Notes: a model not told the origin generated them from the sequence alone. A DNA stretch of 64,000 bases from a virus (IMGVR_UViG_3300002461_000841:503-64502); one strand, 5' to 3'. Numbered from the stretch's first letter, positions 2,519 through 57,999 are shown. Made by a program: numbers and translations.

Positions 2519-2569
2519 GAGGGGCGTCACCCTAACGCATGGGGCTGACAGCGGAGGGGCCATTTGGGG

Positions 2570-3643
2570 CTACTCGGCCGATTCTGTGGGCAGCTCGATG
2601 CGCTCGCCGGTCGCGCAGTGATCGAACCAGTCGCACATGCCGTGACGATCGACGCAGTTGCGCCGTGACCGCGGAAAGCGCCCTGTCGCCCGCGCGAGCG
2701 CCATCTCGGCGGCTTGCTGGCGCAGATCCTCGCGATGCGAGCTGGCGGTGAACGCGCTCGGCGCGATGATCGTACGGTGGAACTGAATCTCCTTGGGCTG
2801 CTTGCCCGTAATGTTGACGATAACGCCCTTGAGCGCGCCCCAGCGCTTGTCGAGCTTGAGGCGCTCCCACAGGTCCATCTGCCCGAGCACCTCGCCCTCG
2901 TTGCCCCAACCATTGAGCGTCGAGTAGTCGAAGCGCGCGGCGGTCTTGTGCTCGAGGATGTACGTGCCGGCGGGGCGGCCGGCAACCTCGTGCGGATAGA
3001 ACGCGATCAAGTCGTAGCGGCACGACTCGCCCGTGCGGGGATCGACGAGATCCTGCTCGACGGCGAGCGGCACGATCTGCTCGTGCTTGTAGTAGAGCAT
3101 GTACGCCTGCGCGATCCGCCAGGCCTCGGCGATGTATGCAGGCTCCGAGAGCCCGTGGAGCTCAGCATGCAGCCCCTCAGGGCTCAGCGGATAACTAGGA
3201 TCGATCATGCGCTGGTAGTAGATCGCGAGGAACGTGTGGAAGAGCCCGCCGATCGCGAGTGCTGCGGCCTCGATGTGCATCGCCGGCTGCGCCCGATCAA
3301 GATAGCGGAGCTTCCACGCGTACCGGCACCGCTGCCAGAGCCCCCATGACGACCACCCCGTGCCCGTCGACGGCCCGCCGAGGCGGGGCAATCCGTACTT
3401 GGCGAACACCTGCATCGTCGCTTCGTCCGTCGGCATGAAGTTTCCGACGAAGAACGCGCGCTGCCTGTTGATCACGATCGGGCTGACGGGTTGATCGTTA
3501 TCGAGCGCGATCCCGTAGGAATCCGTGTAGAGCACCTCACAGTCCGGGACCTCGGGATGCTCCTGGCGCCCGTCCTCGAGCGGCGTGAGATCACGCCCGC
3601 AAAGAAAGCACGTCGAGATGCGCGGCGCGCGACGAATCTGCAT
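2570..3643 (-). CDS. PD-(D/E)XK exonuclease (RecB/AddB/Cas4-like fold)
   Basis: RYDLIA...ILEHKT catalytic motifs; 1+3 Cys pattern (QRC...NC...MCDWFDHC). Confidence 0.75.
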   Translation of the reverse strand: MQIRRAPRISTCFLCGRDLTPLEDGRQEHPEVPDCEVLYTDSYGIALDNDQPVSPIVINRQRAFFVGNFMPTDEATMQVFAKYGLPRLGGPSTGTGWSSWGLWQRCRYAWKLRYLDRAQPAMHIEAAALAIGGLFHTFLAIYYQRMIDPSYPLSPEGLHAELHGLSEPAYIAEAWRIAQAYMLYYKHEQIVPLAVEQDLVDPRTGESCRYDLIAFYPHEVAGRPAGTYILEHKTAARFDYSTLNGWGNEGEVLGQMDLWERLKLDKRWGALKGVIVNITGKQPKEIQFHRTIIAPSAFTASSHREDLRQQAAEMALARATGRFPRSRRNCVDRHGMCDWFDHCATGERIELPTESAE

Positions 3644-3971
3644 CGGGGGCTACCCTACTCGATGGGGCTGACATCGCGGTCCGCAGTCGAGGCATGCGAT
3701 AGCCATACGTTGGATTCCCGGCGGGCGGCCCAGCCTCAAGGACTACCCGCTCGATGACACCCGCCGCCGCGTAGCGTTGAACCACCCGATAGAACGTTCG
3801 CAGGCCCAACACCCCAAAGTTGTTGAGCACGCGATCATAGAGCTCACGTGACTTGATCGGGTAGTACCCGAGGCTACGCCGTCGGGGGCGGATCGCAGGG
3901 CGTGTGCCGGTAGAGGCATCGCTTGCGCAACCCTGATTGCACGACAGCGACGATCTGTTTGCACTTCGCAC
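3591..3971 (-). CDS. Probable winged-helix protein, paralogous to 1..393; 5' end uncertain
   Basis: RVLNNFGVLGLRTFYRVV resembles VRNDYGSADERTIYRGI. Confidence 0.4.
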   Translation of the reverse strand: MRSANRSSLSCNQGCASDASTGTRPAIRPRRRSLGYYPIKSRELYDRVLNNFGVLGLRTFYRVVQRYAAAGVIERVVLEAGPPAGNPTYGYRMPRLRTAMSAPSSRVAPDADSSRAAHLDVLSLRA

Positions 3972-3997
3972 AACGTTGTGAAGCCGACACGCGCCGT

Positions 3998-5617
3998 TTA
4001 CGCCGAGGCAAGGAAATCCTCCATGAGCCGATCAACGTCACCAACCTCGTCAGGGCCCATGATGGCCGTGCGCAAGGCGTCGATCGAATCGACGGCCGCA
4101 CCGACTCCGAGCGGATCAGCGGCCGACAGTTTGGTGATGAGCGCCCGGATGATGCGCTGATCGGTGAGGTGATCAGCGACGACGAAAATGATGTCCATCC
4201 CGCGCTGCGGGTTGTGCGACGGGAACGTGCGCATCTCGGCCTGCCCGATCACGGCCGGCGTGTAGTCGAGCTCGGCGAAGATCGCAACGGGTTTCGACGT
4301 CGGCGCGTGCGAGAGGTCAATGCCGACCTGGCCCACGGCCATCGTCGCGACGAGGAGCCCATTCGAGCACTGCCGCCACGCCTCGATCCGCCGATCGCGC
4401 TCGGCGGCGGCGATGTCGCCGTGGATCACCCATACCTCGTCGATCGGGCTCGACGCGTCGCGCGCGATCTGATTCGCGAAGTCCTTGTGCCAGGTCCACA
4501 CCACGACGGGGTGCCCGGCGGAGCGCAAGCGCGCGGCCTCGTTCGTGACGGTCTTGAGCTTCACACCTGTCACCTGCCGCCGATACGCGGCAAGGTGCGC
4601 GGCCGTGTTCGAGCGCTCGCTGAGGAGATGCCCCGCGAGGATGTCGAGCTTGTTGCGTTCGGTCTGGGGCACCGGAGCGATGATGATGCTGCGCGAGATC
4701 GGGGGCATCTCCTCCGTCACGTCCATCCACTTCCGACGCAGCATGATCTCGCCAAGGCGCGCGCGCAGCTCGGGCCCGTGTGAGAGGCCCGTGTAAACGG
4801 TGCCGTATCCAGACGACTCCGGTGCGCCATAGCGGTTCGCGAAGTCGTAGAAGCTCCCGAAGCCCTTCGGCGCGACGAGCGACAAGATCATCCAGAAGTC
4901 TGGGGGCAGGTCCCACACCGGCGTGCCCGTCATCGCGACGACGTTCTGCGCCTTGGCGGCGATGATCGACGCGGCAACGGCGCGCTTCGTCTTGTGGTTC
5001 GTCAGCGCATGGGCCTCGTCGAACACGACACGTCCATACTCCGACGGGCGCTGCCAGAAACGCAAGATGTCGTAGTGCGCGAACACGAGCGGTTTCTTCG
5101 CTGTTTCGACATCAAATTTCGTGCCGGTGAACACCCCGATCTCGGTATCGGGCCAGAGCTTGCGCATCCACCCGAGCCACACCCCGCGCGCCGGCAACGG
5201 CGCGACGACCACGAGCGGCCCATCGGCTGGATCGTGCGCCATGAGCGCGGATAGCGTCTTGCCGAGGCGCATGTCGTCGCCGAGAAGGGCCCCGCGCCGC
5301 TTGCCGAGGAACGCGGCGGCGTCGAGCTGGGTCGCACGCGGCGTGATGCCGCGCTCGGCGAGGCGCGCTACGAGGGCGTCGCGCGGTTCGGGGTTGCGCG
5401 ACGCGAACTCGAGCGTCAAGCGCGCAGCCTCGCTAGCCTCGATGAGCGGTAGCACGTTGCGATGGATGTGCCCGCTCACGATTGCCTCGACGCCTTGGAC
5501 GCCGCCCTTGAGCGCCGGGACGAGTCCAGGGATGCCACGCCGCGCGAGATCGCGCGCGATGTCGCACGAGACCCAGAACCAATCTGGGCCGTGACGGCGA
5601 TCGGCTGGCTTGATCAC
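3998..5617 (-). CDS. SNF2-family (SF2) helicase
   Basis: DDMRLGKT, FDEAH, MTGTP, GIDL, QAEMR motifs. Confidence 0.85.
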   Translation of the reverse strand: MIKPADRRHGPDWFWVSCDIARDLARRGIPGLVPALKGGVQGVEAIVSGHIHRNVLPLIEASEAARLTLEFASRNPEPRDALVARLAERGITPRATQLDAAAFLGKRRGALLGDDMRLGKTLSALMAHDPADGPLVVVAPLPARGVWLGWMRKLWPDTEIGVFTGTKFDVETAKKPLVFAHYDILRFWQRPSEYGRVVFDEAHALTNHKTKRAVAASIIAAKAQNVVAMTGTPVWDLPPDFWMILSLVAPKGFGSFYDFANRYGAPESSGYGTVYTGLSHGPELRARLGEIMLRRKWMDVTEEMPPISRSIIIAPVPQTERNKLDILAGHLLSERSNTAAHLAAYRRQVTGVKLKTVTNEAARLRSAGHPVVVWTWHKDFANQIARDASSPIDEVWVIHGDIAAAERDRRIEAWRQCSNGLLVATMAVGQVGIDLSHAPTSKPVAIFAELDYTPAVIGQAEMRTFPSHNPQRGMDIIFVVADHLTDQRIIRALITKLSAADPLGVGAAVDSIDALRTAIMGPDEVGDVDRLMEDFLASA

Positions 5618-5946
5618 AGACCGGGCCCACGCTCAAGATAGATTCGATTCGCGCGCACGAAATGCTTCCACGTATGCCGCCCCATGCCCCAGGTCAACGT
5701 GCTGTCAAGCCTTCGACTGGTTACGGTCACGTGCCCATCACGATCGGCACGAATGATCTCTAGCTGCTTGCCCGGCGGTTCGATCCACACCTGCCCGACC
5801 TGGGGCGCGATGTCGCGGGTTCGACGGTGGAGGCGGTACCAGTAGAGCCATTGCCAGCCGATCGCCACTAGCGCCGCAAGGAGGCCGAGCCCCACGAGCG
5901 AGATGACGACGAGCTTGAGCCACCCGAGAATGCGCCAGGGATCCAT
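5614..5946 (-). CDS. Hypothetical membrane protein
   Basis: N-terminal hydrophobic segment; box+TAGCTT promoter upstream. Confidence 0.5.
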   Translation of the reverse strand: MDPWRILGWLKLVVISLVGLGLLAALVAIGWQWLYWYRLHRRTRDIAPQVGQVWIEPPGKQLEIIRADRDGHVTVTSRRLDSTLTWGMGRHTWKHFVRANRIYLERGPGL

Positions 5947-5957: not shown

Positions 5958-5996
5958 AAGCTATCGTGTCGGGCTGACAGCCCTACGCGGTAAGGT
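5958..5996. promoter_or_regulatory. Bidirectional virus-specific promoter on the dyad GGGCTG-A-CAGCCC
   Basis: + strand CTGACA-11-TAAGGT; - strand CTGTCA-11-TAGCTT. Confidence 0.65.
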
Positions 5997-6009: not shown

Positions 6010-7565
6010 ATGGGCTCGACCGCGATCACGCTACAAGCCGCGATTCAGCGCCAACGGATCGACCGGATCCGGCGGGATAAACGCATGGATCAACGGGCGC
6101 GCCTGCTCGCACTCTGGAACTACGTGCTCGTCAACGAGCTCACCGAGGGCTCGACGTTCCTGGTCTCCGAACCCGACAAGCGCTGCTACATCGTCCTTGG
6201 CAGCTCGAACGAAGCGATCCGCTTGCCAGCGAAGCACGGCGATCGGTGGAACGCCTACTTCGCTACATCTACGAGGTACTCCGCGCGCACATCCTCGAGA
6301 ACGGCACCCACGTCGAGCTCCGGCGCTTCTCCGCGTTCAGTCGCGCGACCAAGACCGCGTACCTGTCGCAGTACAACGGCAGCATCTGGAAGATCGAAGG
6401 CTCCGAGGCGATCACCGCCGAGCCCAACGGCGTCGATGGCGTGTTCTTCGCCGACGACGACATCATCGACGCCGATCCGAAGTCGGTACACGTCGATCCG
6501 GACATCGGCCCCCACGGGATGCTGCTTCCGCGCCTGCTCACCATGAACTTCGCGACGACGGGCCTAGGCGGCATCACGCCCGAACAACAGCGCATGGCGC
6601 TCACGGTGTGGTTGTTCTGCCTCGCGTTCCCCGACATCATGCCGACCAAGCCCATCCTGCTCGTCGAGGGCGTGCGCGGCTCGGGCAAGAGCGCCAGCAT
6701 GAAGTTCATCCAGCTCGCGCTGATGGGCCAGATGCACCCGATGATCATGCAGAAGTCGAAAGAGGACGACTTCGGCGTGGTCCTGCTCCGGGCGCCGATC
6801 GCTCTCTTCGACAACATGGACAACTACATCGAGTGGGTCCCCGACGCGATCTGCGCCTACACGACCTCGGGCGTGTGGACCCGTCGCCGGCTCTACAGCG
6901 ACGACGACTCGATGACGATCCGCCCGCACGCGTTCATCGCGGTCTCGACGCGCAATCCAGCGAGCTTCCGCCGTGATGACGTAGCCGATCGGTGCATCAT
7001 CATTCGCCTCGAGCGCATCTTGGAGTTCATCCCCGAGGAACAGCTCAAGGCGCGGATCTTGGAGGAGCGCCCCAAGCTCCTCGGTGAGTACATCTGGTAC
7101 ATCGGCAAGATCGTCGACGAGCTACGCAAGGATGCGCTCGGCGTGCGCGGCGAGACCCACCGCATGGCCGACTTCGCGCTCATGGCGCGCGCGATCGGGC
7201 GCGTGATGGGATGGACCGACGCTGACGTCGATGGGCTCATGATCGCGCTGCAGGACGAACGCGACGCCTTCATCAACGAGGACGATCCGCTCATCGAGCT
7301 GCTCGAGATGTGGCTCTCGTACAAGGCCAACTCCGGGATCAAGAACGCGGGTCGCATCATGACGGCGACACAGTTGCACTCGGAGCTCGACACGCTCGCC
7401 CAGGCGAAGAACCTCACATGGCGCGCGTCGGCACGCTCACTATCGCAGCACCTACGCGCGCCACACCTAGAGAAGCTGTTCCTGATCGATCCGGTGACCG
7501 TGCACGGCAGCAAGGGCTTCCGCATCTACCGCCAGACCGAGACCCCGTTGGAGATCGTGGGCTAG
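6010..7565 (+). pseudogene. SF3/D5-like replicative NTPase-helicase with a frameshift near 6246-6262
   Basis: Walker A GVRGSGKS and Walker B LFDN in the 6246 frame; the plausible N-terminus lies in the 5995 frame and turns into S/R/T-rich shadow after WNAYF. Confidence 0.6.
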
Positions 7566-7588
7566 CTGTCAGCCCCACGCGCTAGGGT
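7566..7588 (+). promoter_or_regulatory. TGWCA-box promoter
   Basis: CTGTCA-GCCCCACGCGC-TAGGGT. Confidence 0.65.
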
Positions 7589-7596: not shown

Positions 7597-8211
7597 GTGA
7601 AGCAGCAAGGCCGCAAGCCGCCTAGGCGCCGCCAACCCGCGCGCCCGAAGCTCGACGCCGACATGCGCGAGCTCATGACCGTGCTGGCCGAGAACAAGCT
7701 CGACGACTTCGACGCGCAATTTGAGGCCCCATGGCGTGATGGCTGGAACACCGTCGCGCTTTTGTTCGAGGAAGCAATTGCTCGCGGTATCGACCAGGTG
7801 TTTGAAGGCCCCGGGTGGAGCGCGCAACTAGCGCTGTGGATTACCGACCGACTCGTTTCGCCGGACGTCTACCGCCAAGCGGAGCTGATGGAAGTTGGGG
7901 CCCTTCGCGAGCTCATGACGCGCGCGATCGACGCATATGGCCTGCGAGCAATCGCGCTTGCCGCGCGCTGCGCGCAGTTGGTCACCGCCAACACGAGCGC
8001 CGGCGGGCACGCCTTCAATCCGCTGCTCAAGCGATTCTACTCAACGGTGATAGCGACACCAACCGAGCTGAAGCGCATCCGCAAGCACCGCTGCAACGAT
8101 GCCGTCGGGATCGAGCGCGAAGATCACAAGAACGACCGCGAACGTCGCGCCTTCAACATCGCCTGGGAGCGTGGACTCTATCGGGCGGCCTATGCCATCA
8201 AGGGGACCTAG
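7597..8211 (+). CDS. Hypothetical protein
   Basis: GTG 8 nt after TAGGGT; normal composition. Confidence 0.6.
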   Translation: MKQQGRKPPRRRQPARPKLDADMRELMTVLAENKLDDFDAQFEAPWRDGWNTVALLFEEAIARGIDQVFEGPGWSAQLALWITDRLVSPDVYRQAELMEVGALRELMTRAIDAYGLRAIALAARCAQLVTANTSAGGHAFNPLLKRFYSTVIATPTELKRIRKHRCNDAVGIEREDHKNDRERRAFNIAWERGLYRAAYAIKGT

Positions 8212-13643: not shown

Positions 13644-14009
13644 TCAGGTCTTGTGCCGAGCCCGCTCACGTTCGCAGTCGACGATCTTGCTCACGAACGC
13701 GGTGAACTCGTTGCATAGGTCGAGATCGTTGTCTGAGAAGTCCGGCAGTCGCGGCAAGTAGGCGGCAACCTCCTCGAGCTGCATCGCGGGCCAACCACGC
13801 GTGGTCTCCGGCGGCAATTGTCCAACAGCGAACTGAACGATCGGCAGCATCGCGCGCACGAGTGGAACGAGATCGCGTTGGGTCGGCGAGAGCTGCGTTG
13901 CGCGCTCCTGCGCGAGACTTGAGATCAGCTTCGCGTTGCTATCGTGGAGCGCCTTCTCGCGGGCGCGCATCTGATCGAGTTCTTCGAGCGTGATCGTGAC
14001 TGTTGCCAT
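13644..14009 (-). CDS. Hypothetical protein
   Basis: Box+TAGCGT 7 nt before ATG. Confidence 0.6.
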   Translation of the reverse strand: MATVTITLEELDQMRAREKALHDSNAKLISSLAQERATQLSPTQRDLVPLVRAMLPIVQFAVGQLPPETTRGWPAMQLEEVAAYLPRLPDFSDNDLDLCNEFTAFVSKIVDCERERARHKT

Positions 14010-14039
14010 GCGCGGGACGCTACCGCGTCGGGCTGACAG

Positions 14040-14583: not shown

Positions 14584-15015
14584 CTAGTTCACCTTGAAGC
14601 GCTTGATCACGTCGTCGCCGGTGACCCCGTCAACCTTGTCGACGAGCTCCTCGGGGAGCGTATCCATGGCGCCGCCGGCGCGCGCGATCGAGGACCCTGC
14701 GCCGGCCACCCACTTCTCGCACAGGTAGGTAGGCTGGATCAGATCGCCCACCGGCTCCCCGGTGGCGGTCTTGCCCACATCGCAGGTCACGAGGCCGCCC
14801 TTGGCGATCACCATGTCGACCTGGTGCACGTTCGTCTTGATCGCCTTGACCCGTGGATCCGCCTCGCCGAGCGGGGCGTCGATCGCGAGGCTGAGGGCGC
14901 GTTGCAGGAGCCCTTCACGCTTGGCCTCCCATAGCTTCTGGGGATCCTTCTGGTTCTTGCAGTTCCAGCATCCGGTTGACCGCTCGAACGTGCGTTTGGG
15001 GAGAGCGACGGGCAT
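14584..15015 (-). CDS. Cys-containing hypothetical protein
   Basis: CWNC, C, CEKW; operon spacing. Confidence 0.55.
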   Translation of the reverse strand: MPVALPKRTFERSTGCWNCKNQKDPQKLWEAKREGLLQRALSLAIDAPLGEADPRVKAIKTNVHQVDMVIAKGGLVTCDVGKTATGEPVGDLIQPTYLCEKWVAGAGSSIARAGGAMDTLPEELVDKVDGVTGDDVIKRFKVN

Positions 15016-15139
15016 TACCCGTACCGTTCCCCCATTCGCCTGCGTCTGTCAAATCCGACCTGCGTGCTCCGGTAAAATTGACACCGTTGGCGCAAATGGC
15101 CATGCTGCCGGGACTCGAATGGGAGGCCGGACCGATCAC

Positions 15140-17197
15140 ATGAGCCGCAAGATGGAACTCGCCCGTAAGGCGTTCGATGATGCCGTCCTGATCACGATGA
15201 CTGAACCCCTCACGGTTCGCGTCGAGAAGATCAAGGGCCACGCGCGCACCCCGATCCCGATGCCCGCCTCCGAGGGCGGCGACGGCTCAGCACCTGGATC
15301 GGGCTACACGAAGGACGACATCAAGAATCTCGAGCAGTGGCTCGTGACTCAGTGGTCCGGCGGTGGCCTCTACGAGATCACGGTCACTGACTCATCGGTC
15401 TCGCCCATCGCCATGAAGTGGGCCCCGCACTGGGACCCACGCGAGTACCCCGAGATCGTGCCGCCGCCGCTGCGTAGCGCCGTGAACGGTAACACCTCCG
15501 CGGCCCCGCCGCAGATCGCTCCCCCTCCCCTTCACCCCAGCCTGCAGGTGCCCCGCATGTCCGCCTTCCCGAACGGCCTCCCCATGACCCCGCTCCCGCC
15601 GCAGCCGCAGCAGCAGCCGCAACCCCAACCCGGCTTCTATCCGTCGCCGTACCAGCAGATGATGCCGCCGCTGCCGCCCCAGTACATCGGAACGCCGCAG
15701 TGGAACCAGTACAATGCGGAGCAGGAGCGTCGGAAGCAGGATGACGAGCTGCGTGCCGAGCGCGCGCGGCGCGAACAACAGGAGCGCGAGATGCTCGCGG
15801 CGAAGCACTCTGCCGAGCTCGAGAAGCTCCGTGCCGAGGCCGATCGGGTCAACCGTGAAGCCGCGCAACGTCACGAGGCCCAGCTCGCCGAGATGCGCTC
15901 CTCGATCGCTGCGCTGACGGCCCAACTCACGAACCAGCCCAAGGAAGATCCGAAGCTCGCTCTCATGCAGGCCGAGCTCGCCGAGGCACGCCGTCGTGAG
16001 GAGGCCGCCAAGGCCGAGCGTGAGCAGGAGCGACGCGATCGCGACATGCGCGATCTGATCAAGGCGCAGCAGGAGGCCACCGAGCGGCGCATCGCCGACC
16101 AGCAGCGTCAGTTCGAGGCGATGATCGCGGCGATCCGCGACAGCGGCAGCAAGCCCGATTCGATGCTGCAGCTCGTGAAGGACATGCAGCGCGAGAACGC
16201 CGACGCGCTCAAGGAGATCGCGCGCACGAGTCAGGCCTCGATCGACAAGTTGCAGGCGTTCATGATGAACCCGCGCGACATGATGCTGATGGCTCGCGAG
16301 AGCCAGCAGGGCACCGAGGCCGCAACCGATCGCATCTCGCGCATGTTCGGTGGCGTCGTCGAGATGCAGCAGAAGGTGATGGAAAACGCGCTCGCGATGC
16401 AGCCGCAGGGCGGCGGCGTTGCTGACGTCGTTCGCGAGGGTATCCAGACCGTGAAGGACACCGCCGAGCGCTATATCGGCGGCAAGGCCTCCGTCGAGCG
16501 CGCACAGGCGCAGGCGCAGGCGGAGATCGCTACCGCGCAGGCGCGTGCGATGGAGGCCCAGGCGCTCGCGAACCACCCCAACGCGCAGGTGATCTACACC
16601 GCAGGGCCGGGCGCCGAGCAGGCTCAGATCCCCCAGGGCGCGGGCCTGAACGGCGCGCAGGAGCCGCAGGCGACCGTCACGCCGATCACCGAGAGCCGGA
16701 AGTCGCGGAAGGCGAAGAAGCGCGACGCTGAGGCGCCCACGGGCCCCGAGGTGAAGCGCCTCGGCAAGACCGATCGCGAGTGGTTCGGGATGGCGTATCC
16801 GCAGGTCATCGAGGAGCTGCGTCCCGCCGTCGCGCGCTACCTCGAGTCATGCGGGATGACCCCGGTGCGCGTCACCAAGACGGGCGCGATCGACGGGTCG
16901 CCGCCCGAGGATGTCGTGCAGGTCGTCATGACCGCGCTCGGCCAGTCCGTGCAGTACGGCGTCAAGATCCCCGCGCTCATCGATCTGCTCATCCCCGAGC
17001 GCTACGCCGATTTCGCGGACGTGCTCCTGCCCGACGCGACCCAGCCGTACCGTGATGACGTCGCGCAGATGCTCGCGGGGGCCGTCGAGCGTTTCAAGGA
17101 GCTCACCGGCGAGAAGCCGGCCAAGGCCGACGCCGACGCCGACGACGACGAGGGCGAAGACGACGACGAGCCCGACGACGACAAGCAGGCGTCGTAG
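15140..17197 (+). CDS. Large Pro/Gln-rich coiled-coil protein with acidic tail
   Basis: PQ-rich linker, long E/R/Q heptad region, DDDEGEDDDEPDDD end; start moved to ATG 15140. Confidence 0.7.
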   Translation: MSRKMELARKAFDDAVLITMTEPLTVRVEKIKGHARTPIPMPASEGGDGSAPGSGYTKDDIKNLEQWLVTQWSGGGLYEITVTDSSVSPIAMKWAPHWDPREYPEIVPPPLRSAVNGNTSAAPPQIAPPPLHPSLQVPRMSAFPNGLPMTPLPPQPQQQPQPQPGFYPSPYQQMMPPLPPQYIGTPQWNQYNAEQERRKQDDELRAERARREQQEREMLAAKHSAELEKLRAEADRVNREAAQRHEAQLAEMRSSIAALTAQLTNQPKEDPKLALMQAELAEARRREEAAKAEREQERRDRDMRDLIKAQQEATERRIADQQRQFEAMIAAIRDSGSKPDSMLQLVKDMQRENADALKEIARTSQASIDKLQAFMMNPRDMMLMARESQQGTEAATDRISRMFGGVVEMQQKVMENALAMQPQGGGVADVVREGIQTVKDTAERYIGGKASVERAQAQAQAEIATAQARAMEAQALANHPNAQVIYTAGPGAEQAQIPQGAGLNGAQEPQATVTPITESRKSRKAKKRDAEAPTGPEVKRLGKTDREWFGMAYPQVIEELRPAVARYLESCGMTPVRVTKTGAIDGSPPEDVVQVVMTALGQSVQYGVKIPALIDLLIPERYADFADVLLPDATQPYRDDVAQMLAGAVERFKELTGEKPAKADADADDDEGEDDDEPDDDKQAS

Positions 17198-17390
17198 TGG
17201 CGCCCGATCAGCCCAAGACGCCGCCGCGGTTGGATGTGATCGTTTCGCGCTCCAACAGCGAGCCCACTGGCGGCTATGACGCGCCCATGATTCGCTACGG
17301 GCACTTCGTCACGCGTGACAAGTTCGGCAACCCGATCAAGTCGAACACGCGCTAGTTGTCAGCCCCACGCGGTAGAACCGAAGCCAGATC

Positions 17391-20684: not shown

Positions 20685-20693
20685 GCGCTCAGC

Positions 20694-20942
20694 CTACCAC
20701 TTGAACGGTAGGTGCTGCGTGCGCTTGTAGGCGATGAACCCGAGCCCGAGCCCTAGGCCGCCGACGAGGAGCGAACCGAGAATGTATGGCTCGATCGAGG
20801 CCTTGATGGTCGGGATGGCTTCCTCAGCGCCTGCCTTCGCTTGCGCGCGAATGTAGGCCTCGAACTCGGCGAGCTTCCGGTTGACGTTGGCGCCGCCAGG
20901 GATGAGCGCCAAGAGTTCCTTGAGGTCATCCTGAACCGCCAC
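20694..20942 (-). CDS. Small C-anchored protein
   Basis: Ends PYILGSLLVGGLGLGLGFIAYKRTQHLPFKW. Confidence 0.6.
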   Translation of the reverse strand: MAVQDDLKELLALIPGGANVNRKLAEFEAYIRAQAKAGAEEAIPTIKASIEPYILGSLLVGGLGLGLGFIAYKRTQHLPFKW

Positions 20943-20945
20943 GGG

Positions 20946-21224
20946 TTAGCCCTTGCTGCGCTTGTAGAGCTTGTAGCCGCCGAACGCGATGAGCGCGAGC
21001 CCGACGATGACAAGCCACGTCGGGAGCTGGCGGCCGAAGATGGTCATCGTTCCGCTCGAGGCGCTTCCCGCCGAGGCGCCCTGGGGCCAGAAGCCAGGGG
21101 TCACCGTCGGCGCTTGCGAGGCGAACAGGTTGCCCACGATGGTGTGGGTGGCCGCTGCGTTGAACGTCGCGGCGGTTGGAATGGCTCCGAGCTGGGAATC
21201 GTCGACGGGCTTCATGATCATCAT
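20946..21224 (-). CDS. Small C-anchored protein
   Basis: Ends PTWLVIVGLALIAFGGYKLYKRSKG. Confidence 0.6.
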   Translation of the reverse strand: MMIMKPVDDSQLGAIPTAATFNAAATHTIVGNLFASQAPTVTPGFWPQGASAGSASSGTMTIFGRQLPTWLVIVGLALIAFGGYKLYKRSKG

Positions 21225-21226
21225 AG

Positions 21227-21466
21227 CTACTTGACCTTCTTCTTGTAGAGCGCGACACCGCCGACGCCGCCGGCAACGAGGAGGCCGATGCCCCACCACT
21301 TCTTGTACCAGGGCGTTGTCGCCGCGTTGATCGCGGCCTGGATGTTGGCCCCCGCAGCGGCGAACACCTGCTTGGGCTGGGATTGGTAGAATGCGACGCA
21401 GACGGGGTCATTCGGCGCGATCGCGCAGATGTCCGTCTCGCCGAGCGAGCGCCCCATGAGCAGCAT
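21227..21466 (-). CDS. Small C-anchored protein
   Basis: Ends PWYKKWWGIGLLVAGGVGGVALYKKKVK; TAATG coupling. Confidence 0.6.
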   Translation of the reverse strand: MLLMGRSLGETDICAIAPNDPVCVAFYQSQPKQVFAAAGANIQAAINAATTPWYKKWWGIGLLVAGGVGGVALYKKKVK

Positions 21467-21963
21467 TACGCTGCCGCCTTGCGCGGGGCCAGCACGAGCT
21501 TGTACGTGCCGAAGCCGAGGAGCGCGATGAGCACGATGCCGATGGGCGTCTTGTACCAGCCCGGCGCGAAGAACCCGACCGTGGTCGGCGTCGGCGCTGT
21601 GGGGGTGGTCGGCGCCGGGGGGTTCTGGCGGAACTTCACGGCCGCCGTGTTCGCGGCGACGGTGAGGGGGCCCGCGTACTGCGTGATCAGCGACTTCGCC
21701 TGTGAGGTGCTGCCGCCAACCGCGAGGCCAGCCTGCAGCACGACGTAGAGCCATGTCGGAAGCTGTTCGGAGAGGAGCCCAAGTGCGGCGGTCACGGCCG
21801 CGATGGTCTGGGATCCGACGATGCCGTCGATCGGCCCAGGGTTGATAGCGGGGCGAAGGGTCGCTTTCGCGAGGTTCGCGAGCGCGGTCTGCAGGCCAGA
21901 CACCGACGATGAGCCGCCGAGCTGGACGCCATGCCCCGCATCTTGAAGGCCGTAGTGCAACAT
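21466..21963 (-). CDS. Peptidoglycan-binding-domain protein with C-terminal anchor
   Basis: VSGLQTAL...PGPIDGIVGSQTIAAV (PG_binding_1 pattern); C-terminal TM. Confidence 0.65.
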   Translation of the reverse strand: MLHYGLQDAGHGVQLGGSSSVSGLQTALANLAKATLRPAINPGPIDGIVGSQTIAAVTAALGLLSEQLPTWLYVVLQAGLAVGGSTSQAKSLITQYAGPLTVAANTAAVKFRQNPPAPTTPTAPTPTTVGFFAPGWYKTPIGIVLIALLGFGTYKLVLAPRKAAA

Positions 21964-21990
21964 GGCCCTCAGCCTATCACGAGTCGCGCG

Positions 21991-23466
21991 TTAGCTTTTG
22001 CCGCTCGCTAGGATGGCCCCCGCCGCGAGTGCGCCACCGACGATGATGGGCCACGGGACGGTAGACGCCGCTTCGGTGGTCTCGGTGAACTCTTCGGGGA
22101 TCGGGGTTGGCGCGGGCGGCTGGGTCCAGAATTTACACCACGTCGAGATGGCGACATTGGCGGCCGTCACGGCGGCCTGCTCGGCGCTCGTCGGTGGGGT
22201 GCACTTGCAGAGGGCCTCACCCGGCTTGCACGTCTTGCCAGTGCTCTGATTTGAGCAAAGCGTCGACGCCAGCGAGGTGTTGTGCGACTGGATCGCGGTC
22301 TGGTTGGCGCAGATCATGTCGCCCATGGACCGCATCAGGCTAGCGAGCCCGTCGATGGCATCCTGATACCAGGCCTTGTCGTAGGGCGTGATCTTGAACG
22401 TGTAGCGCCGCGCGGCCCCGACGATCACGGAGATGTTGCGATAGCCCCCCATGGCGACGTTCAACCGGAAGGCTTGGCCGTCCTTGGTCTTGCAGAACTC
22501 GTGGCCCTTCTTGTTCGGTCCGCGCCCGAACGTCGGCATGAACTTCGTTTGTGCTGGGTACTCGCCACGAAGCACCGTGGCGTCGAGGAAGTAGCCGCCG
22601 CGCTCGAGGTACGCGAGGGCGCCCCCCTGATTTTTGCGTTCGGAGATCGAGGGGGCGATTGGGTTCAAGCTGTAGCCGGGGTAGTCGACAACCCAGCGAC
22701 CACTGGCGAGGAGCTCGTCAACAGAGTGAAACTTGGTGACCGTCTCGAGGCGCCCGCCGCCGGCGGTGTAGATCTTGACCCCTTTCGAGAACACGTTAAC
22801 GAGGCCTGATGGGCGGCTCGCCGATCCGGTCAGGTTGTCTTCGATACCGTCATCATTCAGGTCCCAGTCGATCTGGTCGCCGAACACGTCACGCGTGATG
22901 TTCGCCTGCGATCGAATGTAGAGCTGGAAGTCGACGGCGAACTGTTGATCGGTCGTGAGTGTTTGGGCAGTAGTGAACGCTTCGGTCTGCAAGCTCGTGA
23001 TCGGGAACGCGACTGTGTTCCAGGCGAAGAAGCCGTAGGGCACAAGCAACGTGTCGATCCCAAAGCTGCCGGCGGTGTAGGGCCATCCGTAACGGTACGG
23101 GGTGCTGAAACTCTTGGCGTTCGATCCGCAGTCCACCGTGGCCACGGCGGCAAGCGCGCGGCTAACAGCCTTGAGGCGTTCGGCGCGCTTCAACACGAAC
23201 TGGCCGTGTGCACGCTGGATCTCGGCGCGGGTGTCGCCGGCCGTCGAGATCTTGGGCATGCACATGAACCCGTTGGGGCCCGGAGTGCCGGGGACGCCGG
23301 CGCGCGCGCGCTGCCAGTGGCCCGCTACGGTGGCCGTAGCCGTTGCCCATGTGTACCCGGGGGGCGGATTCCCACAGGCGACCTCGGTCGCATTGGGGGT
23401 AGATGCTGCCGCGGCAATGACCTGGGCGGCATCGGCGCCGTCCTTGATGAAGTCGAAAAGGCCCAT
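21991..23466 (-). CDS. Large C-anchored putative virion protein with Cys-rich segment
   Basis: LCSNQSTGKTCKPGEALCKC...WCKFW; ends VPWPIIVGGALAAGAILASGKS. Confidence 0.65.
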   Translation of the reverse strand: MGLFDFIKDGADAAQVIAAAASTPNATEVACGNPPPGYTWATATATVAGHWQRARAGVPGTPGPNGFMCMPKISTAGDTRAEIQRAHGQFVLKRAERLKAVSRALAAVATVDCGSNAKSFSTPYRYGWPYTAGSFGIDTLLVPYGFFAWNTVAFPITSLQTEAFTTAQTLTTDQQFAVDFQLYIRSQANITRDVFGDQIDWDLNDDGIEDNLTGSASRPSGLVNVFSKGVKIYTAGGGRLETVTKFHSVDELLASGRWVVDYPGYSLNPIAPSISERKNQGGALAYLERGGYFLDATVLRGEYPAQTKFMPTFGRGPNKKGHEFCKTKDGQAFRLNVAMGGYRNISVIVGAARRYTFKITPYDKAWYQDAIDGLASLMRSMGDMICANQTAIQSHNTSLASTLCSNQSTGKTCKPGEALCKCTPPTSAEQAAVTAANVAISTWCKFWTQPPAPTPIPEEFTETTEAASTVPWPIIVGGALAAGAILASGKS

Positions 23467-23504
23467 CGGTGATGTCAGCCTATCACGTGGTACGCTCGAC
23501 CTTT

Positions 23505-25178: not shown

Positions 25179-25394
25179 CTAGCGCTTGCAGGCGACCGCG
25201 GCGCGCGCGCCCTTGGTCGTGATCTCGTAGTGCTTGCTCTTGGGCGAAATGCGCTTGATGTAGCCGCCTCGCACGAGCTTGCTGACCGATCCTTTGGGGG
25301 CGCGGCGCGAGATGTCGCTCGCCGGGAAGGAATGCCCCCGTTGAAGCGAAATGGTGCGAGCGAGCTGCAGCAGCGAGCAACTGACGTTTGCCAT
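25179..25394 (-). CDS. Small basic protein, winged-helix-like
   Basis: VSKLVRGGYIKR...YEITTKG; TACGTT 5 nt before ATG. Confidence 0.5.
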   Translation of the reverse strand: MANVSCSLLQLARTISLQRGHSFPASDISRRAPKGSVSKLVRGGYIKRISPKSKHYEITTKGARAAVACKR

Positions 25395-25424
25395 GCCTCA
25401 ACGTAACACGATAGGCTGAGCACC

Positions 25425-25841
25425 ATGTTTCAGCTCGCCGGTACCGAGATCGAGACCAGCACGCTCAACTCCGAGATTGATGGCCTGATCAGCCGCTACG
25501 GCGACCCCAGCCGGGTCGATAGCTCGGCGGTCGCCAACTTCCTCGAGCTGTACCCCGCCAGCCAGCGTGACCTTGTCGGGCGCGCGCTGGTCGGCAAGGG
25601 CATCTCGAACGTCGCTGTCGCCAACGCGCTCCGGTGGAACGACACCACGAGCGCGTTCGCGCGGAACAAGAGCACGATCCTCGGCGTGCTCTCGCTCGCG
25701 AGCGCGGCAGCGTGCGGCTTCCACGGCTACCGCCGCAACAACTCGTACGGCTGGGCGGCGGCCTGGTTCATCCTCGGGGGCATCTTCCCCGTGTTCACCC
25801 CTGTCGTGGCCCTTGCCCAAGGGTTTGGCAAGCCCAAGTAG
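25425..25841 (+). CDS. Membrane protein with two C-terminal helices
   Basis: TAGGCT 7 nt before ATG; two hydrophobic segments around YRRN. Confidence 0.65.
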   Translation: MFQLAGTEIETSTLNSEIDGLISRYGDPSRVDSSAVANFLELYPASQRDLVGRALVGKGISNVAVANALRWNDTTSAFARNKSTILGVLSLASAAACGFHGYRRNNSYGWAAAWFILGGIFPVFTPVVALAQGFGKPK

Positions 25842-25863
25842 CCTCGTGATAGCGTAAGCGCTC

Positions 25864-26193: not shown

Positions 26194-26216
26194 CCGCTCG
26201 TGGTACCCTGGGCGGC

Positions 26217-27781: not shown

Positions 27782-27809
27782 ACGCTATCACGTAGGCCTG
27801 ACAGGCCTA
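27782..27809 (-). promoter_or_regulatory. TGWCA-box promoter within a perfect 17-bp dyad
   Basis: TAGGCCTG-A-CAGGCCTA; CTGTCA-11-TAGCGT, ATG 7 nt later. Confidence 0.65.
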
Positions 27810-28382
27810 GCGGCGGTTTCTCCGCTGCATCGACGCGATCACGTCCTCGGGCACGTAGCGCAGCGTGCGCCCGCCACCACGTAGCGACGGGATCTCGCCC
27901 GCCTTCGTCATGCGGCGCACCGTAGGTACGCTGACGCCAAGAATCTCGGCCATGCGCTCGATGTCGACGACGGCCTCGTTGATGCCGCCCGGGTGCGTGG
28001 CCGCTAGCAGCTCTTGGATCGCCGCTTGGCCGATGTGCTGGATGTACGCAAGGAGATCCGCCACCGGATGGAACCAATCATCGCGAATGCGCGCCGCCTC
28101 ATACTGTTCACCGATCGCCTCGGCGTGCTCGAGGGGCGTCATGGTCGAGACGAGCCCAATCAGCATCGGGTCGAACGGGTTGTCACGTGCGAGCTCAGCG
28201 AGCCGGCGGCCGATGTGCGTGCCCTTGGCGCCCTCGATCTTGATCGGGCCTGCACCGCCGGGCGGCGAGACCTGGACGAACATCACCCACGCTTGCCCGT
28301 TGCCGCTCGCGTGGGGCGCGAATGCGGAGGCAGTGGTCGGGCTGACGATGAGCATTGGGGACGCGTGATCACTCGTGATCAA
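27807..28382 (-). CDS. Degenerate T5orf172/GIY-YIG-like domain fused to an excisionase-type HTH
   Basis: GPIKI...RRLAEL...RIRDDWF; MAEILGVSVPTVRRMTKAGEIP...LRY. Confidence 0.6.
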   Translation of the reverse strand: MITSDHASPMLIVSPTTASAFAPHASGNGQAWVMFVQVSPPGGAGPIKIEGAKGTHIGRRLAELARDNPFDPMLIGLVSTMTPLEHAEAIGEQYEAARIRDDWFHPVADLLAYIQHIGQAAIQELLAATHPGGINEAVVDIERMAEILGVSVPTVRRMTKAGEIPSLRGGGRTLRYVPEDVIASMQRRNRR

Positions 28383-32340: not shown

Positions 32341-32382
32341 GGGCATCGGAGCCACCTACTCTAGCGCGAGGGGCTGACACTC

Positions 32383-33664: not shown

Positions 33665-33997
33665 ATGCGCATTGACGATCTCACCCGAATGGGCGCCACA
33701 ATTGGCCATGTTGCCCCGGTCACACACGGCCCTGACGTGCTCAACCACAACGGCCCGATCGTGTTCACGTTCGAGGGCCCGAAGGCCAACATGCCCTTCG
33801 ATCTGCCGCCGCGGCTGCACGCCGACAACTTCACCGCCGTGTTGGGTGAACGCGCCGCGCCAAAGCCTGGCCGTGTAGTGCGTGGGGTTCGCGCCATGTT
33901 CCGTGCGGCGCACACCATCCTCGACGCGATCGAAGATGCGATCGAGCTCGCGATCGCCTCACAGACCCCATCGGATCCTGGCAGCCCCACGCAGTAA
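33665..33997 (+). CDS. Hypothetical protein
   Basis: TGgTAGGCT 6 nt before ATG. Confidence 0.5.
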   Translation: MRIDDLTRMGATIGHVAPVTHGPDVLNHNGPIVFTFEGPKANMPFDLPPRLHADNFTAVLGERAAPKPGRVVRGVRAMFRAAHTILDAIEDAIELAIASQTPSDPGSPTQ

Positions 33998-34006
33998 GCT
34001 TCGGGC

Positions 34007-35316: not shown

Positions 35317-35339
35317 CTGACAGCCCCACGCGCTAGGGT
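35317..35339 (+). promoter_or_regulatory. TGWCA-box promoter
   Basis: CTGACA-GCCCCACGCGC-TAGGGT. Confidence 0.65.
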
Positions 35340-37531: not shown

Positions 37532-37577
37532 GGGGTGGTTTCAGGATACCCCCGCCCCCGTGATAGGGTCTACTTCT

Positions 37578-48954: not shown

Positions 48955-49773
48955 TCACCACATCTGCTTGCCGGTGGGGTCCGCGAGATCGATGTGCCCG
49001 ACGCGAACGCGCGTGTCGACGGCGAACCGCTTGCCTTTGCGCTTGGCCTTCTCGCAGAAGTAGAGATCCTGCGTGAACCCGACCGGGCCCTTCTCGGGGA
49101 TGATGTCCGAGAGAGTCTGGAACCACGGGCCCTCGATGTCGCGGAACAGGTCCATGCGGTACAGCGAGCAGCCCATCGCGATCCCATTGACCTCGACGAT
49201 GTTGCCGTTCGCGAGCGCGCTGCGGATGTCGCGCGGCCGGAACTCGAGCTCGCCCGTGCGCCGGAAGTGTTCGGGGTCGCCGTACGCCATCGGCATGTTG
49301 AAGTCGCCCTTGGTGAAGTAGAGCCCACCGACGGCATCGAAGCTGCCCGCCTCGATCGCTTCGAGCAGCCGCACGTGGGCGTCGGGCGGCACGAGGTTGT
49401 CGCTCTCGAGCGTCAACACGTACTTCCATTTCGAGAGGTTCGGGTCGGCCAGGATGTTCTTGATCATCTGGTCGTACGCCACCCCGACCTCGTGCCCGAT
49501 GACGTAGAACTTGGCGCGCTTGCCGTTCATCGGCGCGATGAGGCTGTCCCAGGCCTGAACGATGCGCCAATGGAACTTGTGGTCGCGCTCGGGGATGATG
49601 ATGATCGTCGAGTTGTCCTTGTAGGTGGAGCCGGGGATCATCTCGACGCGCTCGAAGCCAAGCATGCGATCGCGCTCCATCGCGGTTTCGATCGCAACCT
49701 TGCCGGTTGCATCGGCGACGGCGCTCGCCGCCGGCAGCGTCACGGACTTCGGGGTAACGTCTTCGTTGGCCAT
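48955..49773 (-). CDS. GT-A fold (family 2-like) glycosyltransferase
   Basis: YVLTLESDN; QDLYFC...VDTRVRVGH; same family as 17929..18630. Confidence 0.7.
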   Translation of the reverse strand: MANEDVTPKSVTLPAASAVADATGKVAIETAMERDRMLGFERVEMIPGSTYKDNSTIIIIPERDHKFHWRIVQAWDSLIAPMNGKRAKFYVIGHEVGVAYDQMIKNILADPNLSKWKYVLTLESDNLVPPDAHVRLLEAIEAGSFDAVGGLYFTKGDFNMPMAYGDPEHFRRTGELEFRPRDIRSALANGNIVEVNGIAMGCSLYRMDLFRDIEGPWFQTLSDIIPEKGPVGFTQDLYFCEKAKRKGKRFAVDTRVRVGHIDLADPTGKQMW

Positions 49774-49852
49774 CGGGGCAGCACCCTAGCGCGTGGGCCT
49801 GACACCAAACGCGCGTTTGCGGGGTGTCTGGGCGATGCGGTACCGTCACCTG

Positions 49853-51996: not shown

Positions 51997-52425
51997 ATGG
52001 CCGTTACCGCTTCCATCGTCTCCATCGGGCACAACCGCCTTCGGTATCGGATCACGCAGGACGGCACCGCCGGCACCACCGTGACCATCACCTCGAGCGG
52101 TGGCGCGACGCCCGACCTCAAGACGGATTCCGTCGCGGGTCCGATCAAGGCGCTCACCAACGCGCCGACGACGGGCTACGGCAGCATCGCCGCTGGCGCG
52201 CTCACTCAGGCCAACGCCCGCACGCTGTGGCAGGCGAACGGCTCGGGCACGAGCCCGTTGCCCTACGCGCGCTGTCAGCTCACCCAGCGCAGCGGAGACC
52301 CCGCGGCTACCTGGGCCGTCGACTCCAACGTGTCGACCGGCATCCCGACGATCGTCGTCACCGCCCCGTCGACGGCGGGCACGGCGTACCTCGACGTCTA
52401 CATCCCTGGCCAGATCGGAGCCTAA
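51997..52425 (+). CDS. Beta-rich virion-type protein, paralog 2 of 3
   Basis: Same motifs; TAAGTCATG junction. Confidence 0.7.
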   Translation: MAVTASIVSIGHNRLRYRITQDGTAGTTVTITSSGGATPDLKTDSVAGPIKALTNAPTTGYGSIAAGALTQANARTLWQANGSGTSPLPYARCQLTQRSGDPAATWAVDSNVSTGIPTIVVTAPSTAGTAYLDVYIPGQIGA

Positions 52426-53634: not shown

Positions 53635-53675
53635 GCCACGCACTCTAGCGCGTGGGGGTGTCAGCGAAGACGCGA

Positions 53676-56217: not shown

Positions 56218-56265
56218 CCGATCAACCAACCTACCGACCAACCGACCGCCCAAGGAGCTACCGCC

Positions 56266-57492
56266 ATGAAGATCACAAGCTGCAATCTCACCGGGCCTAC
56301 GGGCATCATCGCCACGCCGATCACCATCGAGGCCTCGATCAACACGTCCACACTACCAGCGTTTCACGTGCCCGCGTTCGGCGATCCTAAGACCTCGCCC
56401 CGGCTCCGTGAGATGTCCACGCGCATGCGCGCGGCGATGTATGCCGTGGAGCTCACGTGGCCCGTGGGACGCATCGACATCGCGATCACGGGCGCCGACA
56501 AGATCCACGCCGCCGCCGCGCTGGATCTGCCGATGGTGCTTGCCATTGCCGGGGCCGGGCTTCCCCTCGACGGGATCATGGTACTCGGTGAGCTGGGATT
56601 CGACGGGTCCGTGCGCGCCGTGCGCGGCGTGACCCAGGCCGTGCTGCTCGCCAAGTCGCTCGGCATGCGCGGGATCCTCGTGCCGGCCGTGAACGCTCGC
56701 GAGGCGTTCGCCGTCGCGGACGGATTCCCGGTCCACGCGGTCCTGAACCTCGCTAACGTGCGCGACGCGCTCGCCGCCGAGGTGACGCAAGTGATCAGCA
56801 CGCGGCCCCGCGTCGACGGGCCGGACTTCCGCGACGTGCGCGGGCAACCAGCCATCGTCCAGGCCGTCGAGGCCGCCGTGAGGGTGCGCGCGCCGATCGC
56901 GTTGTCGGGCCCGCCGGGCACCGGCAAGACCATGATCGCGCGCCGCGTGCCGAGCATCCTGCCCGCGCTCACTCGCATCGAGGCGCTTGCCGTCACCGCC
57001 AACTACAGCGCGTGCGGGCTCGCCGAGGATCTCATCGCCGAGCGCCCGTTTCGCGCGCCCCACCACACGATCTCAACGGCGGCGCTTGTCGGCGGTGGCG
57101 CTGGTCCACGCCCTGGCGAGGCGCAGCTCGCCGCGTATGGGGTTTTGTTCCTAGACGAGTTGCACGAGTTCTCGCGGCTCGCGATCGAGGGCCTCGCAAA
57201 CGTACTCGAGCGCATGCCGGCCCGCGAGCGCCCGCTCGTGATCGCCTCGACGATGCCTTGTCCGTGCGGCTGGCGTGGCTCGGTCGAACGCGTGTGGGCG
57301 CTCACTCAGTGCTGCCAGTGCAGCACTGAAACGGTACGCCGGTTCCGCGAGCGGTGTGAGGGCTTCATGAAGGTTCTCGGGATGGCCGAACCGATCGCCG
57401 TTCAGCCCGTCACCATGACCATGCTCCGCGATGGCGCCGAGGGCGAGGCGAGCGCCGCGATTCGTGCGCGCATCGAGGCCGCCCATGGTTAG
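56266..57492 (+). CDS. Shortened, divergent ComM/YifB (Mg-chelatase-related) ATPase
   Basis: LDLP.. LGELG.DG.VR.V.G, D..DVRGQ, GPPGTGKTM, PFRAPHHT, G.PGEA.LA..GVLFLDE, PCPCG. Confidence 0.85.
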   Translation: MKITSCNLTGPTGIIATPITIEASINTSTLPAFHVPAFGDPKTSPRLREMSTRMRAAMYAVELTWPVGRIDIAITGADKIHAAAALDLPMVLAIAGAGLPLDGIMVLGELGFDGSVRAVRGVTQAVLLAKSLGMRGILVPAVNAREAFAVADGFPVHAVLNLANVRDALAAEVTQVISTRPRVDGPDFRDVRGQPAIVQAVEAAVRVRAPIALSGPPGTGKTMIARRVPSILPALTRIEALAVTANYSACGLAEDLIAERPFRAPHHTISTAALVGGGAGPRPGEAQLAAYGVLFLDELHEFSRLAIEGLANVLERMPARERPLVIASTMPCPCGWRGSVERVWALTQCCQCSTETVRRFRERCEGFMKVLGMAEPIAVQPVTMTMLRDGAEGEASAAIRARIEAAHG

Positions 57493-57682
57493 CCAGGTCG
57501 ACACCGCGCTCGCGGCCCTCAACGCGCATCAACGGCGCTACCGCGGCGAGGTCATGACCGCCGGAACCTTCGCTAGCGCGGAGTTTGATCGCCTCTACAC
57601 CGTGTGGATCTGTGCGCGGTGGGACGCCGGAGACGCGTGGGCCCGTCGGGTCTGGACCACGCGCCCCACGGGGGGCGCATGA
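57485..57682 (+). CDS. Small hypothetical protein
   Basis: Overlap coupling. Confidence 0.45.
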   Translation: MVSQVDTALAALNAHQRRYRGEVMTAGTFASAEFDRLYTVWICARWDAGDAWARRVWTTRPTGGA

Positions 57683-57999
57683 GCGCCATCGGCACCGTGA
57701 TCGAGACGCGCTACGGCACGATCGAGATCACGGGCTGGGATGGAGCCTGGCGCCACGAGATCTATCGGCCCAAGGAACCGCACCCGAGTGAACCCTGGAA
57801 CCGTGAGATCCGCGAGCGCTCGATGGCCACGGGCCCCGACGACATCAGCCCCCCGATCACCATCGGCCTCGACTACCGCGCCGAGTGCCCCGTGTTGCTG
57901 GCTCAACATCAAGCACACCCGCGAGCGCCACGACGCCGCGCTTGCGGCGATTCCTGTCACCCCCACGCGCTAGCTTCCATTCACCGACCAACCGACTAG
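57679..57999 (+). CDS. Hypothetical protein, possible 1-nt frameshift in C4 run 57888-57891
   Basis: Removing one C gives ECPCCWLNIKHTRERHDAAL...TR ending at TAG 57971-57973. Confidence 0.4.
   Translation: MSAIGTVIETRYGTIEITGWDGAWRHEIYRPKEPHPSEPWNREIRERSMATGPDDISPPITIGLDYRAECPVLLAQHQAHPRAPRRRACGDSCHPHALASIHRPTD

Follow-up and report, generated by a model that had tools for sequence, protein, structure and literature searches.

The 64,000-nt stretch of DNA analysed here (the window) corresponds to bases 503-64502 of the 69,887-bp virus record IMGVR_UViG_3300002461_000841, and coordinates are given in window numbering. The record has a G+C content of 65%, and identical DNA is present in activated-carbon, drinking-water and biofilter metagenomes, the runs listed being DNA runs and none of them RNA. 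Distributed through the window is a repeated 22-nt element composed of three blocks: a TGNCAG box at approximately -28 to -23, a 10-nt spacer and a -10 hexamer. The 16 members of this family, hereafter class A, precede mainly genes of replication, including those for a UDG-fused family A DNA polymerase, UvrD and SNF2 helicases, a D5-like primase-helicase and a nuclease. The left end of the record cuts the family A polymerase gene and the right end cuts the UvrD-like helicase gene, each of which has a class A site ahead of it. Both genes contain inteins in relatives.

The class A element and its sites

An initial annotation of the window had listed 13 sites, and claimed at least 12 copies of a TG(A/T)CA box placed 11 nt before a -10 hexamer. 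Every one of the 13 was recovered at the same position and on the same strand. The pattern TGWCASSCC-N7-TAGNNY matched the window 12 times, where dinucleotide shuffles predict 0.01. When the 69,887-bp record was scanned with a weight matrix, the family scored 26-41 bits (25-42 after iteration), far above shuffled genomes, which peaked at 11.6 bits, and above the best non-family sequence at approximately 10 bits. The family is completed by one further site in the window, 33979..34000 (+), and by two beyond it found in the weight-matrix scan, at -67..-46 (-) and 69165..69186 (+) in window coordinates.

The class A consensus is (C)TG(T>A>G)CAGCCCCACGCGCTAG(G/C)(G/C)T. Every hexamer begins with TA, and 15 of the 16 end in T; the form TAGAAC had been read correctly and lies at 17373-17378. 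Nothing resembling a -35 sequence is conserved at 16-18 nt, and a TGn ahead of the -10 occurs at a single class A site (27782), although it is typical of one relative, G004. Counted outward from the centre of the box, complementarity holds in 16/16, 16/16 and 9/16 sites at positions one, two and three and is at background level beyond these; the symmetry is thus confined to TGNCA, and the flank upstream carries little information. Both palindromes described previously are real, namely GGGCTGACAGCCC at 5971-5983 and TAGGCCTG-T-CAGGCCTA around 27793-27809, the former being a full dyad because two divergent, back-to-back promoters use one box. A MerR-type spacer operator, which would be a long dyad between a -35 and a -10 spaced 19-20 bp apart, was not recognised, there being no -35 and a dyad of only 5-7 bp. 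An RNA structure was also considered and rejected, since the CCC/GGG pairing inside the motif is broken in members carrying TAGCGT, TAGCTT or TAGAAC.

In the leftmost part of the window, the site at 2529..2550 (-) comprises a TGTCAG box, 11 nt and TAGGGT followed by a GTG 10 nt downstream, and the site at 3652..3673 (-) lies 8 nt before the ATG of a PD-(D/E)XK nuclease gene (2570-3643). The divergent pair that shares a box consists of 5958..5979 (-), the putative promoter of a small gene (5614-5946) and of the SNF2-type helicase operon, and 5975..5996 (+), beyond which an ATG at 6010 opens the N-terminal part of a frameshift-split D5-like primase-helicase. The first 84 or so residues of this protein, from 6010, are homologous to the N-terminus of its orthologues and are in another frame than the main open reading frame (ORF; 6246-7565), reflecting either a frameshift or an assembly error. 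The top-scoring site, 7567..7588 (+), begins 1 nt past the TAG stop of the upstream gene and is followed after 8 nt by the GTG of the core gene p204 (7597-8211). Further sites lie at 14017..14038 (-), 7 nt before the ATG of the core gene 13644-14009, and at 17357..17378 (+), where TAGAAC forms the -10 and a GTG follows after 12 nt.

The site at 27782..27803 (-) stands directly after the stop of gene 27807-28382, and a site also follows the stop of the orthologue of that gene in the relatives G001 and G004; it is the one that also has a GTGnTA extended -10, with an ATG 7 nt downstream. The added site at 33979..34000 (+) is a TGGCA variant with the hexamer TAAGCT, 6 nt before the ATG of 34007-34372, and that at 35318..35339 (+) starts 1 nt past an upstream TAG stop and has an ATG 6 nt downstream. 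To the right, 49783..49804 (-) is the putative promoter of a glycosyltransferase-like gene (48955-49773) whose ATG is 9 nt away, and 53642..53663 (-) is followed after 7 nt by an ATG at 53634. In the sole clearly leadered member, 57955..57976 (+), a leader of 35 nt that includes a Shine-Dalgarno sequence precedes 58012-58473. The site at 32358..32379 (-) points antisense into a conserved plus-strand gene (31801-32340) and possibly provides a long leader for 31389-31760 (-). It opens a 203-codon ORF that wholly overlaps 31801-32340, and may yield an antisense RNA.

The initial annotation had described almost all copies as lying just before a gene start. This holds: at 14 of the 16 sites, an ORF of 50 codons or more begins with an ATG or GTG located no more than 13 nt past the hexamer, mostly at 6-8 nt. 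Eight sites start 1-3 nt past the stop codon of the preceding gene, and seven of those stops are TAG, so that the intergenic gap is made up of the stop, the motif, approximately 7 nt and the start codon, leaving no space for a ribosome-binding site. Over the six genomes compared below, an ORF-opening ATG or GTG lies 5-11 nt past TAnnnT in 92 of 126 sites (mode 6-7), as against 7.8% of random positions, and the enrichment before start codons on which the promoter reading had been staked is therefore borne out. This geometry indicates promoters of leaderless mRNAs, in which the first transcribed base would be the A or G that opens the start codon, 6-8 nt beyond the hexamer. Leaderless transcripts are common in several high-G+C bacteria (PMC4117421).

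Conservation and divergence among relatives

The capsid-like protein encoded at 29889-30596 was used as a query and retrieved 7 IMG/VR contigs, 4 contigs binned in metagenome-assembled genomes of four phyla and 40 metagenome loci, at identities of 60-76%. These relatives derive from soil, sediment, groundwater, mats and bioreactors. Among GenBank phages no close relative was found either by DNA or by the capsid-like protein, the exact motif has no occurrence in IMG/VR, and the structural proteins have almost no Pfam or PHROGs matches. The clade, which appears to be undescribed, is one of high-G+C, uncharacterised environmental viruses of bacteria with genomes of approximately 70-140 kb, the present virus being put at roughly 70-90 kb. 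Related contigs are binned with four phyla and ComM look-alikes come from many, and neither points to any particular host.

Six whole genomes were compared, comprising this one (G000) and five relatives (G001 to G005). In each of the six, the 5-mer most enriched upstream of TAnnnT sits at a gap of exactly 11 nt: TGTCA in G000, G002, G003 and G005, TGGCA or TGTCA in G001, and TCTCC in G004, in which the box is combined at the same distance with a TGn extended -10. The number of sites per genome ranges from 16 to 27, and each genome has a 22-nt consensus of its own, further versions of the spacer being added by other loci. The TGGCA variant accounts for 17 of the 26 sites of G001 and for one in this genome. 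Thus the TGNCAG box, with T, A or G as its centre base, is common to nearly the entire clade, while the 10-nt spacer is strongly kept within a genome and differs between genomes. The hexamer occurs in two flavours, TAG(G/C)(G/C)T and TA(G/C)A(A/C)C, the latter being found in G002 and G003 and at 17373-17378 of the window; in both of these relatives, C is the last base of roughly half of the hexamers (TAGAAC, TACAAC).

The strictness of the spacing is evident from 16 relatives pooled (0.70 Mb). The pattern YGNCAG...TAnnnY occurs 149 times at a gap of 11, whereas the remaining gaps between 6 and 17 yield 28-40 occurrences each, and when a following start codon is required the figures become 118 against 2-13. 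There is no shoulder at gaps of 10 or 12. Together with the fixed distance to the start codon and the lack of anything kept at 16-18 nt, this upholds the proposal that the element is a promoter whose box takes the place of the -35.

The position of the element before particular genes is also conserved. Orthologues of p204 carry their own genome's version of the motif in all six genomes, at approximately 150 nt upstream in G004, and those of the glycosyltransferase do so in all five genomes that have the gene (G001, G002, G003, G005 and this one). For the nuclease the motif accompanies the orthologues of four genomes, directly in G001 and approximately 110 nt upstream in G002 and G003; no site was found at the nuclease orthologues of G004 and G005.

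A dimeric activator had been proposed as the reader of the box. The comparison does not favour this, given that symmetry ends at TGNCA, the flank is weak, the first T of the box is present in only 10 of the 21 sites of G003, and the TCTCC box of G004 has no symmetry. In two relatives it is the spacer that is symmetrical: an 8-bp perfect palindrome occupies the same position in G005 (loci L036-L040; CCAGCTGG) and in locus L002 (CGTCGACG), a hint that the spacer may be methylated or be bound by a second reader, a dimer.

Other promoters and candidate readers

Two further promoter types are present in this genome. An extended -10 class, GTGnTASSnT, has 11 matches against 2.4 expected, concentrated at 20.6-26.2 kb; members at 20691-26209, 35021-35030 and 37560-37569 stand 5-8 nt before the leaderless starts of small membrane-protein and transglutaminase genes. 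A canonical TTGACA-17-TAGTGT promoter, the sole clear -35/-10 promoter in the window, lies at 28475-28503, 8 nt before an ATG at 28512. In both types the flavour of the -10 and its distance from the start codon match those of class A, which argues for one sigma-70-type polymerase with several modes of upstream contact. TAnnnT hexamers without either box or TGn are also found before leaderless genes. A generic sigma-70 scan of 46-64 kb returned sites no more often than chance. With these other types beside it, and with relatives that have their own versions of the motif, class A is not the generic host signal. The TGn-extended and TTGACA-17 promoters indicate that the host is a bacterium, as do genes of bacterial and phage type (ComM, RadC, family A polymerase, UvrD).

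No sigma factor had been seen in the window by the initial annotation, and none was found even in complete relatives: Sigma70_r2 gave no match at E ≤ 1 in four of five genomes, three being complete, and one weak match (E 0.05) in the fifth. Sigma70_r4_2 gave only sub-threshold helix-turn-helix matches, including small LuxR-type proteins of G004 and G005, which are not clade-wide. Six-frame hidden Markov model searches for MotCF and AsiA returned no match at E ≤ 1 in five genomes, three complete, and Pfam and PHROGs searches of approximately 60 proteins yielded almost no regulators. The small LuxR/GerE-type helix-turn-helix proteins are encoded at 52162-52401 and 15876-16169 in G004 and at 29692-30033 in G005 and are absent here; each of the two G004 genes is preceded by that genome's own promoter motif.

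Four genes had been put forward as encoding candidate binders of the box, those at 8531, 12193, 27807 and 53676. Although the architecture is clade-wide, the relatives lack any homologue of 8531 and 53676, and a homologue of 12193 occurs in just three of the five; these three candidates are not supported. The product of the fourth, p191 (27807..28355, minus strand), carries a C-terminal HTH_17/MerR-like domain (E 9e-11) and occurs in every relative examined; the true start of the gene is probably 28355. In its favour is this universal conservation, but its recognition region is nearly invariant even in the genome with the TCTCC box, so there is no covariation that would favour p191 as the reader. 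Its leader (28356-28470) contains paired TGATCA repeats at 28366 and 28376. Such repeats also occur upstream of the p191 gene in G002, G003 and G005, and a G-rich GCTGGGGGCAGCTCGA-like element is present in G001-G003. The TGATCA repeats may be the real target of p191, and the region may be an autoregulatory operator.

Two other core proteins are possible candidates. The gene for p218 lies at 1..393 (-), running past the left edge of the window; its product carries a CxxxxC...HxxH motif, and the winged helix predicted for it is similar to the DNA-binding domains of Fur and PadR. The second is p204, which as a sigma-like factor was rejected: its all-helical model (pLDDT 81) has no Foldseek match, and its best VIA match, a DUF416 helical protein at Z 8.9, is below the level needed for helical bundles. 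An 811-aa ORF at 14762-17197 was likewise rejected as a polymerase. Its orthologues have stops within the first 125 codons or so, marking that part as a spurious extension; the true product of this region is approximately 685 aa, starts near 15140 and is a Pro/Gln-rich coiled-coil protein.

Proposed mechanism, alternatives and significance

The motif is best explained as the main regulated promoter class of the clade, and the polymerase that transcribes from it is almost certainly that of the host. We think it probable, though by no means assured, that the host RNA polymerase reads the -10 while a virus-encoded factor reads the box, much as at T4 middle promoters and without homology to the T4 proteins. 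In outline, host polymerase carrying a primary-type sigma factor would recognise TAnnnT as a -10, and a factor most likely encoded by the virus would bind TGNCAG at approximately -28 to -23 in a fixed register and recruit or stabilise the polymerase. With initiation 6-8 nt downstream of the -10, at the first base (A or G) of the start codon, the transcripts would be leaderless. The factor could be an activator that replaces the -35 contact, or a sigma-remodelling or sigma-like specificity factor. The genome-specific spacer may be recognised by this factor itself or by an additional protein.

Several links lead to this reading. Judged by the other two promoter types of this genome, the host enzyme seems to work with standard spacing. 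Class A has neither a -35 nor, in this genome, a TGn, which implies dependence on a sequence-specific factor. The coexistence in G004 of TCTCC with TGn indicates that the box there is the site of a factor and not a target of sigma region 4, and by their shared architecture TGNCAG should be a factor site as well. The spacer, and in one case also the box, changes from virus to virus, which favours a reader encoded by the virus. We infer from these links the use of a host sigma factor, activation rather than repression, and a viral origin of the reader.

Other observations weigh against this interpretation. The record is incomplete, at approximately 65% by CheckV, and the start sites are deduced from geometry. 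Hexamers ending in C are poor for a standard primary sigma factor, which leaves room for another reader. No protein is tied to the box. Among the candidates of the initial annotation p191 is the only clade-wide helix-turn-helix protein, and the single residue of that domain which differs in the TCTCC genome (M to W) is uninformative. The predicted structure of p204 has no sigma-like fold. Finally, all six genomes share a core gene for a tyrosine integrase (67088-68026 of the record, 66586-67524 in window numbering), which makes a repressor-operator reading plausible.

It is unlikely that the signal belongs wholly to the host, with an alternative sigma factor of the host recognising the box, or else its primary sigma factor or a transcription factor doing so at an odd spacing, and with the viruses copying a strong host signal. 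Leaderless mRNAs are common in the Caulobacter lineage (PMC4117421). That TGNCAG has been kept, although the capsid-like protein has diverged to approximately 60% identity, would be easier to understand with a conserved cellular reader. The Caulobacter housekeeping consensus has been described as having a spacing that is short and varies, together with a -10 whose last base is C (TANAWC), and the TAGAAC and TACAAC hexamers resemble this -10. A host sigma factor does not, however, read a spacer, and here the spacer is genome-specific and the box of one relative is quite different. The same genome also has a canonical promoter with 17-nt spacing, and the 11-nt gap is shorter than any primary-sigma spacing known to us.

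Slightly less likely still is the reverse arrangement, in which TAnnnT suffices by itself as a -10-only promoter in this host, and a repressor of the virus binds the box and spacer and silences the 16-27 promoters of a genome together. Besides the core integrase, what speaks for it is the existence of leaderless genes with TAnnnT but neither box nor TGn, and a genome-specific spacer, palindromic in two relatives (CCAGCTGG, CGTCGACG), that resembles immunity specificity. The sites are also many, asymmetric and oriented with transcription. The temperate mycobacteriophage L5 has such sites in its stoperators, numerous asymmetric repressor sites in short intergenic gaps that are oriented with transcription and contain TGTCA. 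Class A is like them in number, asymmetry and location, whereas the L5 sites are not known to have a fixed -10 register and the register here is exact. A repressor does not need base-pair-exact register, yet the gap is constant in 16 genomes, and the C-ending hexamers of G002 and G003 are unlikely to be active unaided. No repressor gene was identified. Complete relatives are records of 85-138 kb that carry direct terminal repeats, and a search of 185,579 species genomes found no integrated copy, its sole matches being short contigs in bins of four phyla. The occurrence of a core integrase in a clade of seemingly free genomes with terminal repeats is an observation in its own right.

It is very improbable that class A is a T7-style promoter of a virus-encoded RNA polymerase initiating inside the motif, at the G run of TAGGGT. 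Promoters of the T7 group are, like class A, approximately 22-23 conserved bases long, near-identical within a genome and divergent between genomes in one block. Conserved ORFs of more than 500 aa all encode a DNA polymerase, helicases, a primase-helicase, a coiled-coil protein or spikes, and the Pfam RNA_pol (T7-type) model gave no match, though the control genomes for this model could not give one either. Unlike the T7 group, class A has the sigma-type TAnnnT, which with the TGn of G004 forms a pair of sigma-70 hallmarks, and start codons 6-8 nt past the hexamer, as fits a sigma factor; initiation at the G run would leave odd leaders of 10-14 nt without a Shine-Dalgarno sequence.

A sigma-54 (-24/-12) promoter or an archaeal TATA-type promoter of leaderless genes is scarcely credible and already contradicted by the sequence: the TGGCA variants and an archaeal-like TATA/WW geometry (box end 21 nt before the ATG, TA at approximately -11) are set against a -24 GG whose second G is usually T, a box centre that may be T, A or G, no GC or TTGC conserved 10 nt downstream where TGGCAC-N5-TTGC requires it, a G+C-rich box with TGTCAGCC in the TATA position some 26 nt before the start, a hexamer ending in T in 15 of 16 sites, and the promoter and gene types of a bacterial host.

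The preferred reading, of host polymerase directed by a virus factor, has parallels among known systems. To our knowledge, few phage systems in which a box replaces the -35 are understood. The textbook case is MotA/AsiA of T4, in which the MotA box lies 11-13 bp from the -10. At T4 middle promoters, as here, a normal -10 is joined to a phage box that replaces the -35 and lies nearer the -10, and replication genes are the main class served; MotA acts there with AsiA-remodelled sigma-70, so-called sigma appropriation (PMC7403470). The box differs, being TGNCAG here and TTTGCTTTA in T4. Unlike in T4, conservation here continues through the spacer to the -10, transcripts are leaderless, the host is of high G+C, and activation is something that we infer. 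The analogy with MotA drawn in the initial annotation therefore holds for the mechanism but not for the proteins, no MotA or AsiA homologue being present.

Phages of Thermus likewise have high-G+C genomes and avoid -35-dependent promoters, and phiYS40 has leaderless mRNAs. An extended -10 class serves middle and late genes of P23-45 with gp39 (PMC7403470), and such a class is present here; Thermus phage promoters have no conserved box at -28 to -23, unlike class A, and no gp39 homologue was found in this genome, in which no search aimed at one was made. SARP activators of actinomycetes, such as AfsR, bind direct heptamer repeats in boxes that overlap the -35 region. They share with class A an activator site near the -10 that substitutes for the -35 in high-G+C bacteria; class A has a single box, and no SARP-like protein was found here. 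Class A is best described as a new variant of the theme in which a phage box replaces the -35.

More tentatively, the system may represent a new way of redirecting bacterial RNA polymerase. A clade protein with a fold not otherwise associated with transcription, whether a winged-helix, an HTH_17 or a sigma-like protein invisible to profiles, would dock on TGNCAG at precisely 11 bp from the -10 and take over the contacts of sigma region 4. A second reader, co-evolving rapidly with the genome-specific spacer, would create a private promoter code for each virus, again with leaderless transcripts.

For annotation, the order of box, 11 nt, -10, 6-8 nt and start codon provides a rule for calling gene starts and operons in genomes that are hard to annotate, and the motif is a defined DNA bait with which to find the factor. 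A shared box combined with a genome-specific spacer constitutes a natural data set on the co-evolution of promoter specificity. For the viruses themselves, the motif marks an early/middle replication regulon, and one rigid promoter architecture is used throughout a clade of abundant viruses, uncultured and represented by more than 25 genomes and fragments, whose sources are soil, sediment, groundwater and drinking-water filters.

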